Virus record (IMG/VR): IMGVR_UViG_2706794673_000002
Reading direction: 5' to 3' (one strand)
Source of the DNA: a virus
Taxonomy: Duplodnaviria > Heunggongvirae > Uroviricota > Caudoviricetes
DNA length: 13,800 nt
Shown here: positions 1,894 through 13,800 of the stretch, in pieces
Layout: every line of letters begins with the position of its first letter
Position numbering within the stretch: the stretch's first letter is position 1
The notes under the pieces: model-generated
Database searches by the model: none
Told to the model about the DNA's origin: nothing
The model's input: the letters and a program-made list of their open reading frames with translations, nothing else
Position numbers and translations under genes: made by a program

Positions 1894-5576
<3,683 letters not shown>

Positions 5577-6657: not shown

Positions 6658-6905
6658 NNNNNNNNNNNNNNNNNNNNNNNNNNNNNNNNNNNNNNNNNNN
6701 NNNNNNNNNNNNNNNNNNNNNNNNNNNNNNNNNNNNNNNNNNNNNNNNNNNNNNNNNNNNNNNNNNNNNNNNNNNNNNNNNNNNNNNNNNNNNNNNNNNN
6801 NNNNNNNNNNNNNNNNNNNNNNNNNNNNNNNNNNNNNNNNNNNNNNNNNNNNNNNNNNNNNNNNNNNNNNNNNNNNNNNNNNNNNNNNNNNNNNNNNNNN
6901 NNNNN
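6658..6905. other. masked or unsequenced block (248 N) covering the C/nu3 3' end and D start
   Basis: Run of N directly visible in the sequence. Confidence 1.
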
Positions 6906-8354: not shown

Positions 8355-8753
8355 ATGACGAAAGATGAACTGATTGCCCGTCTTCAGGAGCTGGGTGAGC
8401 AATTGAACCGCGATGTCAGTTTGACGGGAACGAAAGAAGAACTGGCGCTTCGTGTGGCAGAGCTGGAAGAAGAGCTTGATGACACGGATGAAACTGCCGG
8501 TCAGGACACCCCTCTCAGCCGGGAAAATGTGCTGACCGGGCATGAAAATGAGGTGGTATCAGCGCAGCCGGATACCGTGATTCAGGATACGGCTGAACTG
8601 GTCACGGTCGTGGCACTGGTGACGCTGCATACTGATGCACTTCACGCCACGCGGGATAAACCTGTGGCATTTGTGCTGCCGGGAACGGCGTTTCGTGTCT
8701 CTGCCGGTGTGGCAGCCGAAATGACAGAGCGCGGCCTGGCCAGAATGCAATAA
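8355..8753 (+). CDS. FI: head assembly/DNA packaging protein FI (132 aa)
   Basis: ATG at 8355 with GGAGGA Shine-Dalgarno. MTKDELIARLQELGEQLNRDVSLTGTKEELALRVAELEEELDDTDE... matches lambda gpFI. Confidence 0.95.
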   Translation: MTKDELIARLQELGEQLNRDVSLTGTKEELALRVAELEEELDDTDETAGQDTPLSRENVLTGHENEVVSAQPDTVIQDTAELVTVVALVTLHTDALHATRDKPVAFVLPGTAFRVSAGVAAEMTERGLARMQ

Positions 8754-8764
8754 CGGGAGGCGCT

Positions 8765-9118
8765 GTGGCTGATTTCGATAACCTGTTCGATGCTGCCATT
8801 GCCCGCGCCGATGAAACGATACGCGGGTACATGGGAACGTCAGCCACCATGACATCCGGTGAGCAGTCAGGTGCGGTGATACGTGGTGTTTTTGATGACC
8901 CTGAAAATATCAGCTATGCCGGACAGGGCGTGCGCGTTGAAGGCTCCAGCCCGTCCCTGTTTGTCCGGACTGATGAGGTGCGGCAGCTGCGGCGTGGAGA
9001 CACGCTGACCATCGGTGAGGAAAATTTCTGGGTAGATCGGGTTTCGCCGGATGATGGCGGAAGTTGTCATCTCTGGCTTGGACGGGGCGTACCGCCTGCC
9101 GTTAACCGTCGCCGCTGA
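8765..9118 (+). CDS. FII: head completion protein FII (117 aa)
   Basis: GTG start at 8765 with GGGAGG Shine-Dalgarno. MADFDNLFDAAIARADETIRGYMGTSAT... matches lambda gpFII at the same length. Confidence 0.95.
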   Translation: MADFDNLFDAAIARADETIRGYMGTSATMTSGEQSGAVIRGVFDDPENISYAGQGVRVEGSSPSLFVRTDEVRQLRRGDTLTIGEENFWVDRVSPDDGGSCHLWLGRGVPPAVNRRR

Positions 9119-9129
9119 AAGGGGGATGT

Positions 9130-9708
9130 ATGGCCATAAAAGGTCTTGAGCAGGCCGTTGAAAACCTCAGCCGTATCAGCAAAACGGCGGTGCCCGGTGC
9201 CGCCGCAATGGCCATTAACCGCGTTGCTTCATCCGCGATATCGCAGTCTGCGTCACAGGTTGCCCGTGAGACAAAGGTACGCCGGAAACTGGTAAAGGAA
9301 AGGGCCAGGCTGAAAAGGGCCACGGTCAAAAATCCGCAGGCCAGAATCAAAGTTAACCGGGGGGATTTGCCCGTAATCAAGCTGGGTAATGCGCGGGTTG
9401 TCCTGTCCCGCCGCAGGCGTCATAAAAAGGGGCAGCGTTCATCCCTGAAAGGTGGCGGCAGCGTGCTTGTGGTGGGTAACCGTCGTATTCCCGGCGCGTT
9501 TATTCAGCAACTGAAAAACGGCCGGTGGCATGTTATGCAGCGTGTGGCCGGGAAAAACCGTTACCCCATTGATGTGGTGAAAATCCCGATGGCGGTGCCG
9601 CTGACCACGGCGTTTAAACAGAATATTGAACGGATACGGCGTGAACGTCTTCCGAAAGAGCTGGGCTATGCGCTGCAGCATCAACTGAGAATGGTAATAA
9701 AGCGATGA
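9130..9708 (+). CDS. Z: tail completion protein Z (192 aa)
   Basis: MAIKGLEQAVENLSRISKTAVPGAAAMAINRVASSAISQSASQVARETK... matches lambda gpZ at the same length. Confidence 0.95.
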   Translation: MAIKGLEQAVENLSRISKTAVPGAAAMAINRVASSAISQSASQVARETKVRRKLVKERARLKRATVKNPQARIKVNRGDLPVIKLGNARVVLSRRRRHKKGQRSSLKGGGSVLVVGNRRIPGAFIQQLKNGRWHVMQRVAGKNRYPIDVVKIPMAVPLTTAFKQNIERIRRERLPKELGYALQHQLRMVIKR

Positions 9709-10100
9709 AACATACTGAACTCCGTGCAGCCGTACTGGATGCACTGGAGAAGCATGACACCGGGGCGACGCTTTTTGATGGTCGCCCCGCTGTTTTTGAT
9801 GAGGAAGATTTTCCGGCAATTGCCGTTTATCTCACCGGCGCTGAATACACGGGCGAAGAGCTGGACAGCGATACCTGGCAGGCGGAGCTGCATATTGAAG
9901 TTTTCCTGCCTGCTCAGGTGCCGGATTCAGAGCTGGATTCGTGGATGGAGTCCCGGATTTATCCTGTGATGAGCGATATCCCGGCACTGTCAGATTTGAT
10001 CACCAGTATGGTGGCCAGCGGCTATGACTACCGGCGCGACGATGATGCGGGCCTGTGGAGTTCAGCCGATCTGACTTATGTCATTATCTATGAAATGTGA
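9705..10100 (+). CDS. U: tail terminator protein U (131 aa)
   Basis: [54 protein letters not shown]... matches lambda gpU. ATGA overlap with the Z stop. Confidence 0.96.
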
Positions 10101-10107
10101 GGACGCT

Positions 10108-10674
10108 ATGCCTGTACCAAATCCTACAATGCCGGTGAAAGGTGCCGGGACCACCCTGTGGGTTTATAAGGGGAGCGGTGACCCTTATGCGAACCCGCTT
10201 TCAGACGTTGACTGGTCGCGTCTGGCAAAAGTTAAAGACCTGACGCCCGGCGAACTGACCGCTGAGTCCTATGACGACAGCTATCTCGATGATGAAGATG
10301 CAGACTGGACTGCGACCGGGCAGGGGCAGAAATCTGCCGGAGATACCAGCTTCACGCTGGCGTGGATGCCCGGAGAGCAGGGGCAGCAGGCGCTGCTGGC
10401 GTGGTTTAATGAAGGTGATACCCGTGCCTATAAAATCCGCTTCCCGAACGGCACGGTCGATGTGTTCCGTGGCTGGGTCAGCAGTATCGGTAAGGCGGTG
10501 ACGGCGAAGGAGGTGATTACCCGCACGGTGAAGGTCACCAATGTGGGACGTCCGTCGATGGCAGAAGATCGCAGCACGGTGACGGCGACGACCGGCATGA
10601 CGGTGACACCCGCCAGTGCTTCCGTGCGGTGTCTGCGGATAAAACAAAAGCCACCGTGTCGGTCAGTGGTATGA
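10108..10674 (+). CDS. V: major tail tube protein V, N-terminal tube domain intact, C-terminal Ig-like domain disrupted
   Basis: ATG at 10108 with GAGG Shine-Dalgarno. [42 protein letters not shown]...TVTPAS matches lambda gpV to about residue 160. The ORF then leaves the lambda frame and ends after an unrelated 20-aa tail ([18 protein letters not shown]), giving 188 aa from this start against 246 in lambda. Confidence 0.85.
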
Positions 10675-10778
10675 CCATCACCGTGAAAGGTGTTGCTGCA
10701 GGCAAGGTCAACATTCCGGTCGTATCTGGTAATGGTGAGTTTGCTGCGGTTGCAGAAATCAACGTCACCGCCAGTTAA
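10623..10778 (+). pseudogene. V: out-of-frame remnant of the gpV C-terminal Ig-like domain
   Basis: A different frame encodes [51 protein letters not shown] followed by a stop, matching the last about 50 aa of lambda gpV. About 25 residues of lambda gpV between TVTPAS and RAVSADK are missing, and the joint is shifted by 1 nt. Confidence 0.8.
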
Positions 10779-10793
10779 TCCGGAGAGTCAGCG

Positions 10794-11216
10794 ATGTTCC
10801 TGAAAACCGAATCATTTGAACATAACGGTGTGACCGTCACGCTTTCTGAACTGTCAGCCCTGCAGCGTATTGAGCATCTCGACCTGATGAAACGGCAGGC
10901 AGAACAGGCGGAGTCAGACAGCAACCGGAAGTTTACTGTGGAAGACGCCATCAGAACCGGCGCTTTTGTGGTTGCGATGTCCCTGTGGCATAACCATCCG
11001 AAGAAGACGCAGATGCCGTCCATGAATGAAGCCGTTAAACAGATTGAGCAGGAAGTGCTTACCACCTGGCCCACAGAGGCAATTTCTCATGCTGAAAACG
11101 TGGTGTACCGGCTGTCCGGTATGTATGAGTTTGTGGTGAATGATGCTCCTGAACAGGCAGAGGACGCCGGGCCTGCAGAGCCTGTTTCTGCGGGAAAGTG
11201 TTCGACGGTGAGCTGA
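10794..11216 (+). CDS. G: tail assembly chaperone G (140 aa)
   Basis: MFLKTESFEHNGVTVTLSELSALQRIEHLDLMKRQAEQAESDSNRKF... matches lambda gpG at the same length. GGAGAG Shine-Dalgarno upstream. Confidence 0.96.
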   Translation: MFLKTESFEHNGVTVTLSELSALQRIEHLDLMKRQAEQAESDSNRKFTVEDAIRTGAFVVAMSLWHNHPKKTQMPSMNEAVKQIEQEVLTTWPTEAISHAENVVYRLSGMYEFVVNDAPEQAEDAGPAEPVSAGKCSTVS

Positions 11217-11632
11217 GTTTTGCCCTGAAACTGGCGCGTGAGATGGGGCGACCCGACTGGCGCGCCATGCTTGCCGGGATGTCATCCACGGAGTATGCCG
11301 ACTGGCACCGCTTTTACAGTACCCATTATTTTCATGATGTTCTGCTGGATATGCACTTTTCCGGGCTGACGTACACCGTGCTCAGCCTGTTTTTCAGCGA
11401 TCCGGAGATGCATCCGCTGGATTTCAGTCTGCTGAACCGGCGCGAGGCTGACGAAGAGCCTGAAGATGATGTGCTGATGCAGAAAGCGGCAGGGCTTGCC
11501 GGAGGTGTCCGCTTTGGCCCGGACGGGAATGAAGTTATCCCCGCTTCCCCGGATGTGGCGGACATGACGGAGGATGACGTAATGCTGATGACAGTATCAG
11601 AAGGGATCGCAGGAGGAGTCCGGTATGGCTGA
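10794..11632 (+). CDS. T: tail assembly chaperone G-T fusion produced by -1 frameshift at 11192-11198
   Basis: The -1 frame ORF downstream of the slippery site (track ORF 11198..11632) matches lambda gpT. Total span of 839 nt equals the lambda G-T span. Its end overlaps the H start. Confidence 0.9.
11192..11198 (+). promoter_or_regulatory. -1 programmed ribosomal frameshift slippery heptamer G GGA AAG (G to G-T)
   Basis: Heptamer GGGAAAG lies in the G zero frame as (gc)G GGA AAG, 6 codons before the G stop. Reading in -1 from here continues as GKVFDGELSFALKLAREMGRPDW... to a stop at 11630-11632. Confidence 0.9.
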
Positions 11633-13800
11633 ACCGGTAGGCGATCTGGTCGTTGATTTGAGTCTGGATGCGGCCAGATTTGACGAGCAGATGGCCAGAG
11701 TCAGGCGTCATTTTTCCGGTACGGAAAGTGATGCGAAAAAAACAGCGGCAGTCGTTGAACAGTCGCTGAGCCGACAGGCGCTGGCTGCACAGAAAGCGGG
11801 GATTTCCGTCGGGCAGTATAAAGCCGCCATGCGTATGCTGCCTGCACAGTTCACCGACGTGGCCACGCAGCTTGCAGGGGGGCAGAATCCCTGGCTGATC
11901 CTGCTGCAACAGGGTGGTCAGGTTAAGGACTCCTTCGGCGGGATGATCCCCATGTTCAGGGGGCTTGCCGGCGCGATCACCCTGCCGATGGTGGGGGCCA
12001 CCTCGCTGGCGGTGGCGACCGGTGCGCTGGCGTATGCCTGGTATCAGGGCAACTCAACCCTGTCCGATTTCAACAAAACGCTGGTCCTTTCCGGTAATCA
12101 GGCGGGACTGACGGCAGATCGTATGCTGGTCCTGTCCAGAGCCGGGCAGGCGGCAGGGCTGACGTTTAACCAGACCAGCGAGTCACTCAGCGCACTGGTT
12201 AAGGCGGGGGTAAGCGGTGAGGCTCAGATTGCGTCCATCAGCCAGAGTGTGGCGCGTTTCTCCTATGCATCCGGCGTGGAGGTGGACAAGGTCGCTGAAG
12301 CCTTCGGGAAGCTGACCACAGACCCGACGTCGGGGCTGACGGCGATGGCACGCCAGTTCCATAACGTGACGGCGGAGCAGATTGCGTATGTTGCTCAGTT
12401 GCAGCGTTCCGGCGATGAAGCCGGGGCATTGCAGGCGGCGAACGAGGCCGCAACGAAAGGGTTTGATGACCAGACCCGCCGCCTGAAAGAGAACATGGGC
12501 ACGCTGGAGACCTGGGCAGACAGGACTGCACGTGCATTCAAATCCATGTGGGATGCGGTGCTGGATATTGGTCGTCCTGATACCGCGCAGGAGATGCTGA
12601 TTAAGGCAGAGGCTGCGTTTAAGAAAGCAGACGACATCTGGAATCTGCGCAAGGATGATTATTTCGTTAACGATGAAGCACGGGCGCGTTACTGGGATGA
12701 TCGTGAAAAAAAACGCCTGGAGCGGGATGCAGCCCAAAAGAGGGTAGATCAACAGCGTCAACAGGACAAAAATGCGCAGCAGCAGAGCGATACCGAAGCG
12801 TCACGGCTGAAATATACCGAAGAGGCGCAGAAGGCTTACGAACGGCTGCAGACGCCGCTGGAGAAATATACCGCCCGTCAGGAAGAACTGAACAAGGCAC
12901 TGAAAGACGGAAAAATCCTGCAGGCAGATTACAACACGCTGATGGCGGCGGCGAAAAAGGATTATGAAGCGACGCTGAAAAAGCCGAAACAGTCCGGCGT
13001 GAAGGTGTATGCGGGCGATCGTCAGGAAGACAGTGCTCATGCGGCCCTGCTGACGCTTCAGGCAGAACTCCGGACGCTGGAGAAGCATGCCGGAGCGAAT
13101 GAGAAAATCAGCCAGCAGCGCCGGGATTTGTGGAAGGCAGAAAGTCAGTTCGCGGTACTGGAGGAGGCGGCACAACGTCGCCAGCTGTCCGCACAGGAGA
13201 AATCCCTGCTGGCGCATAAAGACGAGACGCTGGAGTACAAACGCCAGCTGGCTGCACTTGGTGACAAGGTTACGTATCAGGAGCACCTGAATGCGCTGGC
13301 GCAGCAGGCGGATAAATTCGCACAGCAGCAACGGGCAAAACGGGCAGCCATTGATGCGAAAAACCGGGGGCTGACTGACCGGCAGGCAGCGCGGGAAGCC
13401 ACGGAACAGCGCCTGAAGGAACAGTATGGCGATAATCCTCTGGCGCTGAATAACGTCATGTCAGAGCAGAAAAAGACCTGGGCGGCTGAAGACCAGCTTC
13501 GCGGGAGCTGGATGGCAGGCCTGAAGTCCGGCTGGAGTGAGTGGGAAGAGAGCGCCACGGACAGTATGTCACAGGTTAAAAGTGCAGCCACGCAGACCTT
13601 TGATGGTATTGCACAGAATATGGCGGCGATGCTGACCGGCAGTGAACAGAACTGGCGCAGCTTCACCCGCTCCGTGCTGTCCATGATGACAGAAATTCTG
13701 CTTAAGCAGGCAATGGTGGGGATTGTCGGGAGTATCGGCAGCGCCATTGGCGGGGCTGTTGGTGGCGGCGCATCCGCGTCAGGTGGTACAGCCATTCAGG
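11625..13800 (+). CDS. H: tail tape measure protein H, 3' truncated by the window edge
   Basis: ATG at 11625 with AGGAGGAG Shine-Dalgarno. MAEPVGDLVVDLSLDAARFDEQMARVRRHFSGTESDAKKTAAVVEQSLSRQALAAQKAGISVGQYKAAMRMLPAQFTDVATQLAGG... matches lambda gpH. The frame stays open for about 725 codons to the end of the window. Confidence 0.96.
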   Translation, partial: MAEPVGDLVVDLSLDAARFDEQMARVRRHFSGTESDAKKTAAVVEQSLSRQALAAQKAGISVGQYKAAMRMLPAQFTDVATQLAGGQNPWLILLQQGGQVKDSFGGMIPMFRGLAGAITLPMVGATSLAVATGALAYAWYQGNSTLSDFNKTLVLSGNQAGLTADRMLVLSRAGQAAGLTFNQTSESLSALVKAGVSGEAQIASISQSVARFSYASGVEVDKVAEAFGKLTTDPTSGLTAMARQFHNVTAEQIAYVAQLQRSGDEAGALQAANEAATKGFDDQTRRLKENMGTLETWADRTARAFKSMWDAVLDIGRPDTAQEMLIKAEAAFKKADDIWNLRKDDYFVNDEARARYWDDREKKRLERDAAQKRVDQQRQQDKNAQQQSDTEASRLKYTEEAQKAYERLQTPLEKYTARQEELNKALKDGKILQADYNTLMAAAKKDYEATLKKPKQSGVKVYAGDRQEDSAHAALLTLQAELRTLEKHAGANEKISQQRRDLWKAESQFAVLEEAAQRRQLSAQEKSLLAHKDETLEYKRQLAALGDKVTYQEHLNALAQQADKFAQQQRAKRAAIDAKNRGLTDRQAAREATEQRLKEQYGDNPLALNNVMSEQKKTWAAEDQLRGSWMAGLKSGWSEWEESATDSMSQVKSAATQTFDGIAQNMAAMLTGSEQNWRSFTRSVLSMMTEILLKQAMVGIVGSIGSAIGGAVGGGASASGGTAIQ

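Follow-up and report, generated by a model that had tools for sequence, protein, structure and literature searches.

A likely 70-bp repeat-bounded deletion truncating the tail tube gene V in a lambda-like prophage of Shigella sonnei

Results

The window analyzed here is a 13,800-nt stretch of DNA that makes up the whole of record CWTL01000112.1, part of the draft assembly GCA_001253255.1. It holds the head-tail module of a lambda-like prophage from a Shigella sonnei draft genome, with late-region genes in the order DUF1398, Nu1, A, W, B, C, D, E, FI, FII, Z, U, V, G, T, and the start of H. The tail tube gene V, whose product is the database entry CSF43705.1 (“Major tail protein V [Shigella sonnei]”), lies between U and G in the order Z-U-V-G-T-H (Pfam: Minor_tail_Z, Phage_tail_U, TAC_2, and Phage_tail_T). 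Two runs of Ns interrupt the window, one of 250 nt inside the terminase gene A (3152-3401) and the other of 248 nt spanning the end of C and the start of D (6658-6905). These show the record to be a scaffold, with contigs joined by software, and the public gene calls in A and C/D are fragmentary because the gaps interrupt both. The lengths of the two runs fit the reference prophage of E. coli ET82, where they are 248 and 254 nt. The public calls also show a broken H, and a decayed or error-rich contig was considered. This was rejected, as A and C/D are broken by the N-gaps only and H is open to the end of the contig, with no indels in comparison to the references. Outside the N-gaps, the sole coding indel in the window relative to the ET82 prophage is in V.

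A few other features were observed along the window. A G-run at position 693 is longer by one G (GAGGGGGC) than its counterpart in ET82 (GAGGGGC); it adjoins, on the upstream side, the start of the minus-strand DUF1398 gene (258-683), and the extra base may be real or a homopolymer miscall. Roughly the first 90 nt (1-89) have no counterpart in the alignment to the ET82 prophage, yet the top matches to the whole window begin at query position 1; prophage copies thus vary in what lies upstream of the DUF1398 gene. The cos region (1150-1175) is lambda-like on both flanks, ..CCGACAGGTTACG | ...GCGGGTTTTCGCTATTTATGA.., with a 12-nt cohesive-end segment reading GGGCGGAAGGCG where lambda has GGGCGGCGACCT; searches of the window with lambda cos patterns (a 12-mer with up to 1 mismatch and a 25-mer with up to 3 mismatches) found no match. 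The portal gene of ET82 is annotated with an internal stop. Among other, otherwise near-identical copies of the window's prophage (L010 and L012), 1-nt indels split Z and/or H, reflecting either independent decay or sequencing errors of those assemblies.

Gene V runs from 10108 to 10674 on the plus strand, from an ATG at 10108 to a TGA stop at 10672-10674, and its 188 codons specify a protein of 188 aa, versus 246 aa for the intact protein. Alignment to lambda gpV and to the parent allele described below shows that codons 1-173 (10108-10626) are native, and this part is identical at 171 of 173 residues (99%) to the solved structure of lambda gpV (PDB 6P3E). The remainder of the reading frame (10627..10674, plus strand) translates out of frame into a foreign tail of 15 codons, basic and with two cysteines, followed by the new TGA. 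A Pfam profile search of the zero frame recovered a complete Phage_TTP_12 domain (profile positions 1-135 of 135, 236.5 bits) and found no Ig domain. The initial annotation had placed the end of the match to lambda gpV at TVTPAS, with 20 unrelated residues after it. The match does reach that point, but it extends through three further residues (ASV), which are native in the parent allele, to residue 173, and the unrelated residues number 15. The predicted mass of the truncated protein is 20.3 kDa in comparison to 25.8 kDa for the intact one, in agreement with the approximately 20 and 26 kDa that had been anticipated.

The end of the Ig-like domain at the C terminus is stranded in the −1 frame of the plus strand, where a Big_2 remnant of 52 codons and the original TAA extends over 10620..10778. 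Its coding part (10620-10775) corresponds to gpV residues 195-246 and its stop to 10776-10778. This segment had been described as about 50 aa in another frame starting at 10623, which was correct as to frame and within one codon of the exact start. The remnant is identical at 50 of 52 positions to PDB 2L04 (residues 40-91), but it covers only positions 34-78 of the 79 in the Big_2 profile, with positions 1-33, the first third of the domain, lost. The −1 frame is open from 10494. The new stop of V (TGA, ending at 10674) is 104 nt upstream of the original one (TAA, ending at 10778), and the distance from the V stop to the start of G is 119 nt here versus 15 nt in the parent; any effect of this longer gap on G expression is speculative. 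The new stop overlaps an ATG (ATGA), in the sequence GTATGACC, that opens a 35-codon reading frame on the plus strand (10671..10778, MTITVKG...INVTAS). Although called as a separate gene in public annotation (L004, 10564-10671, weak Big_2), this frame is a by-product of the frameshift that holds a fragment of the Ig domain, and is not an evolved gene. Downstream, the chaperone gene G (10794..11216, plus strand) is intact (Pfam Phage_TAC_2, positions 1-125 of 126). The −1 slippery heptamer of lambda G/GT, GGGAAAG, is conserved at the end of G (11192-11198), and the T frame is open from 11198 to 11632; the canonical tail-chaperone frameshift is intact.

The net loss of about 70 nt with a frameshift that the initial annotation had proposed was borne out exactly. 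Alignments to phages 2G7b, 434, and lambda, to E. coli ET82, and to the parent allele all showed 70 nt missing from V, and the nucleotide comparison with lambda V, suggested in advance as a check, gave one clean gap of this size. In 2G7b, 434, and ET82 the gap is flanked by the octamer GCTTCCGT, while the two lambda copies have diverged to ACCTCGGT and GCTTTCGT. The parent allele was found on a contig (L009, GCA_950287575.1, CATNON010000099.1) reached through a look-up of the window's exact G protein, and the collection lists its intact V protein as “phage tail protein [Shigella sonnei]”. Over window positions 8363-13716 the two sequences are identical at 5,353 of 5,353 aligned bases, with no mismatches and with the 70-nt gap as the sole difference; this degree of flanking identity over 5.35 kb excludes a chance resemblance. 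GCTTCCGT occurs twice, without mismatch, in the parent V (nt 511 and 581), and one copy survives in the window, at the deletion junction (10618..10625, plus strand). The 70-nt spacing of the repeats equals the 70 nt deleted, the microhomology at the deletion ends was computed as 8 nt, and the junction (CCAGTGCTTCCGTGCGG) bears no other change. In silico removal of nt 511-580 from the parent V gave window positions 10108-10778 as an exact string. The deletion thus takes away codons 174-196 (23 residues) plus one base, rather than the roughly 25 residues first estimated, and as 70 is 3 × 23 + 1, the frameshift belongs to the same event as the deletion, and an additional homopolymer error is unneeded. 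The pair of octamers was absent from the five repeat families returned by an automated repeat search, and a direct string search confirmed it. A search for a DNA hairpin joining the repeats found none (z = +0.74), giving no extra structural support for slippage.

In contrast to the abundance of the intact gene, the truncated allele was found only once. The exact 188-aa V protein occurs on a single contig, which is the window's own, while the exact intact parental V protein occurs on at least 1,000 contigs; in the collection, 8,272 indexed blocks contain the exact G protein of the window. In the relatives compared, V is one continuous frame. For complete E. coli genomes and phage records the junction query was a 44-mer whose design keeps intact alleles from seeding a match; with a longer query, of 76 nt, an intact allele matched in two pieces ranks level with any match in one piece, which made that query uninformative. 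The 44-mer did not detect the junction in 5,426 complete E. coli genomes or in 50,697 phage records, and an exact 29-mer did not detect it in GTDB representative genomes, IMG/VR, or JGI metagenomes. The lesion is therefore a singleton on an otherwise identical and very widespread prophage, and is either very recent or not real.

Other lesions are found in the same gene. A Logan contig (ERR14994991, positions 1501-2190; L006) carries an S. sonnei allele, P0069, with an in-frame 51-nt deletion in V. This contig differs from the parent contig by 1 mismatch in 3,690 nt, so it carries the same prophage, and its deletion is bounded by 9-nt direct repeats (GCACGGTGA) and removes residues 140-156, the end of the N-terminal tube domain. 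P0069 is present in NCBI and Logan assemblies alike and on more than one contig. More broadly, a homology search showed that many natural V alleles are damaged in the linker/Ig region. These include in-frame deletions (P0026, P0023, and the whole class of 227-229 aa), frameshifts (P0021, P0062, and P0024), replacement of the Ig region by unrelated sequence (P0020 and P0022), and alleles in which V is fused to G or to a protein of the Ail/Lom family (P0025, P0054, and P0037); in one replaced allele the unrelated sequence has GAHTHS-like repeats. The fused and replaced alleles (P0025, P0054, P0037, P0038, P0020, and P0022) suggest that the C terminus of V is often rearranged in E. coli prophages.

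Discussion

The data above are best accounted for by one recent 70-bp deletion, bounded by short direct repeats, that truncated V and represents early prophage decay rather than an adapted variant. We consider this reading likely. Short perfect repeats at both ends of a deletion, with one copy kept, are an established signature of slipped-strand, short-homology deletion. By this route, one copy of GCTTCCGT and everything between the two copies would have been lost from the parent V through slipped-strand deletion, and translation past the junction, now frameshifted, would add the 15 unrelated residues before stopping at the new TGA. The recurrence of repeat-bounded deletions in V supports a biological origin for the 70-nt event.

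The main competitor is an artefact of assembly or gap closing, in which the true V is intact and software joined contig ends through the GCTTCCGT overlap, dropping 70 nt. Several points give this some weight: the record is a scaffold with two N-gaps, the allele has the look of an artefact in that a single assembly shows it whereas the intact protein is on at least 1,000 contigs, and E. coli genomes carry V-like sequence in multiple copies (median, 2 places), which favors graph breaks inside V. An exact overlap of 8 nt is, however, very short for assembly software, less than scaffolders and gap fillers in common use require by default and far below a de Bruijn k-mer. In addition, the other two unresolved spots of this scaffold stayed as Ns and were not collapsed, and the analogous 51-nt deletion of the same prophage is found in independent assemblies from two sources. 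An artefact is, on balance, unlikely, but it has an appreciable chance of being the true explanation. A different kind of error was put forward in the initial annotation, in which an in-frame deletion of 69 nt (23 codons) was joined by a separate 1-nt homopolymer sequencing error near “gcttcc”. Frame arithmetic alone speaks for such a combination, but it fails against the alignment, as one 70-nt excision between the perfect GCTTCCGT repeats reproduces the window base for base. GCTTCC is parental at both copies of the repeat, no homopolymer run there exceeds 2, and the 5.35 kb aligned to the parent shows no further single-base indel. This makes such a combination extremely improbable.

If the deletion is real, the arrangement it left behind might still be thought functional. 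Across a 57-nt overlap with V the −1 frame of the remnant stays open, and slippage there could attach the remnant to yield two isoforms of V in the manner of SPP1 gp17.1/gp17.1*, where tail-tube proteins gain Ig-like domains by frameshifting (PMC8718954). Tetramers at lysine codons, A-AAA-C (10641-10645) and A-AAG (10647-10650), would allow re-pairing of a single tRNA. Against this, the overlap (zero-frame codons 10618-10674) contains no X-XXY-YYZ heptamer, the minimum free energy of the downstream RNA (−28.6 kcal/mol, z = −1.03 versus shuffles) is not distinctive, and the arrangement is one deletion away from an in-frame parent and conserved nowhere. In addition, the first third of the Big_2 fold is missing from the remnant, which could not make up the domain, and recoding of this sort is hardly to be believed. 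It is also very improbable that the allele is an established and selected variant, from a circulating phage lineage that shed its Ig-like domain adaptively. Other natural V alleles without the Ig region, or with an altered one, are compatible with such a lineage, as is the dispensability of the domain in the laboratory, but this allele is a singleton with no accompanying substitutions relative to an intact parent, it is absent from the phage isolates and complete genomes searched, and a frameshift with a junk tail is atypical of selection for loss of a domain. The description of the allele as a natural truncation variant in the initial annotation thus does not fit with its presence on one contig, versus at least 1,000 with the intact protein. 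A more elaborate scenario combines a real deletion with an inducible prophage, which would make bald tails from the 20.3-kDa V, with occasional −1 slippage at A-AAA-C or A-AAG re-attaching the Ig remnant to a minority of subunits; considered with the independent 51-nt deletion, the linker/Ig region of V could also be a slippage hot spot that generates tail-surface diversity in S. sonnei prophages. Such a scenario is a very long shot. If true, it would offer an accidental snapshot of how a decoration domain attached by frameshifting, as in SPP1 gp17.1*, can originate.

Returning to a recent deletion in a decaying prophage as the favored explanation, its consequences can be considered from what is known of gpV. 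The N domain of this protein (residues 1-156) forms the tube, and the C domain (157-246), Ig-like and of the Big_2 family, decorates the exterior of the tube (PMC8718954; PMC10721106; PMC12617516). According to Katsura (1981), as cited in PMC1885665, up to one-third of gpV can be deleted from the C terminus without harm to lambda tail assembly, and a laboratory-truncated gpV was incorporated into lambda tails (PMC1885665). The reverse primer of that study maps to V nt 509-528, so the laboratory gpV ends at residue 176. The truncated V described here keeps 173 of 246 native residues, within the one-third limit, comprising the whole N domain and part of the linker. If expressed, the 20.3-kDa product should still polymerize around the tape measure into a bald, undecorated tube. 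The initial annotation was correct that the Ig-like domain is dispensable for assembly, but its view of the truncation as viable calls for moderation. For gpV without the C domain, Pell (2010), as cited in PMC8718954, reported that tails do form but that biological activity is approximately 100-fold lower. Function of the truncated V is thus plausible but probably impaired, and phage yield or infectivity would probably be lowered. While the prophage is resident, the lesion is probably near-neutral to the host, and near-neutrality in a resident prophage fits with early decay. Escape from the HigBAC/TAC defense, which senses gpV, was considered as a possible advantage and rejected, as the trigger lies in the β2-β3 loop (S54) of the N domain, a loop that is unaltered in this V.

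As for its wider meaning, the deletion is a clean textbook example of a repeat-bounded event for which the exact parent is available, nothing else differing between the two over 5.35 kb. In itself it matters little, and can at most be set beside the laboratory “small V” mutants as their equivalent in nature. The practical consequence is that the V entry CSF43705.1 should be regarded as a pseudogene-like allele or an assembly error. Of broader interest to those who study prophage decay or gpV display could be the recurrence of short-repeat deletions in the linker/Ig region of V in E. coli and Shigella prophages.

Comparison with known systems

The SPP1 tail tube provides a known case of a similar gene arrangement. 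In this phage a programmed frameshift adds an Ig-like FN3 domain to gp17.1 to produce gp17.1*, and virions are viable when only the short form is present (PMC8718954). SPP1 and the window are alike in having a tail-tube gene with an Ig-like segment behind it in a different frame. The SPP1 arrangement, however, is a conserved product of evolution and specifies a whole domain, while that of the window is accidental and unconserved, with an incomplete domain, no slippery heptamer, and no distinctive downstream RNA structure.

Close parallels at the protein level come from lambda itself. In the “small V” mutants (Katsura, 1981, as cited in PMC1885665) and in the gpV of display vectors, as in the V of the window, the C-terminal third is lost and the tube domain kept, and the laboratory truncation at residue 176 is just three residues past the last native residue, 173, of the V described here. 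The “small V” and display alleles were selected or engineered in the laboratory in lambda, and their incorporation into virions has been demonstrated; the V of the window is a spontaneous frameshift allele in an S. sonnei prophage and would bear a 15-residue foreign tail. A similar comparison can be made with the gpV lacking gpVC (Pell et al., 2010, as described in PMC8718954). Both proteins are without the Big_2 domain (157-246), although the V of the window keeps residues 157-173, unlike gpV lacking gpVC. The approximately 100-fold loss of activity in that case suggests that the allele in the window is likely impaired rather than neutral.

With regard to the DNA lesion, the 51-nt deletion of P0069 shares with that of the window the same prophage background, the same region of the gene, and a repeat-bounded footprint; it differs in being in frame, in keeping the Ig-like domain, and in its presence on more than one contig. 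A further parallel is that of lacI, in which spontaneous deletions between short direct repeats were reportedly described by Albertini et al. in 1982. Deletions of that type and the one in the window have perfect end repeats, one copy kept, and a length equal to the repeat spacing, and nothing is different in kind between them; for the window, the slippage mechanism would be read from this footprint. The truncated V is thus a single-isolate case of a well-known kind of lesion, ordinary prophage decay (or assembly error), and not a new biological feature.
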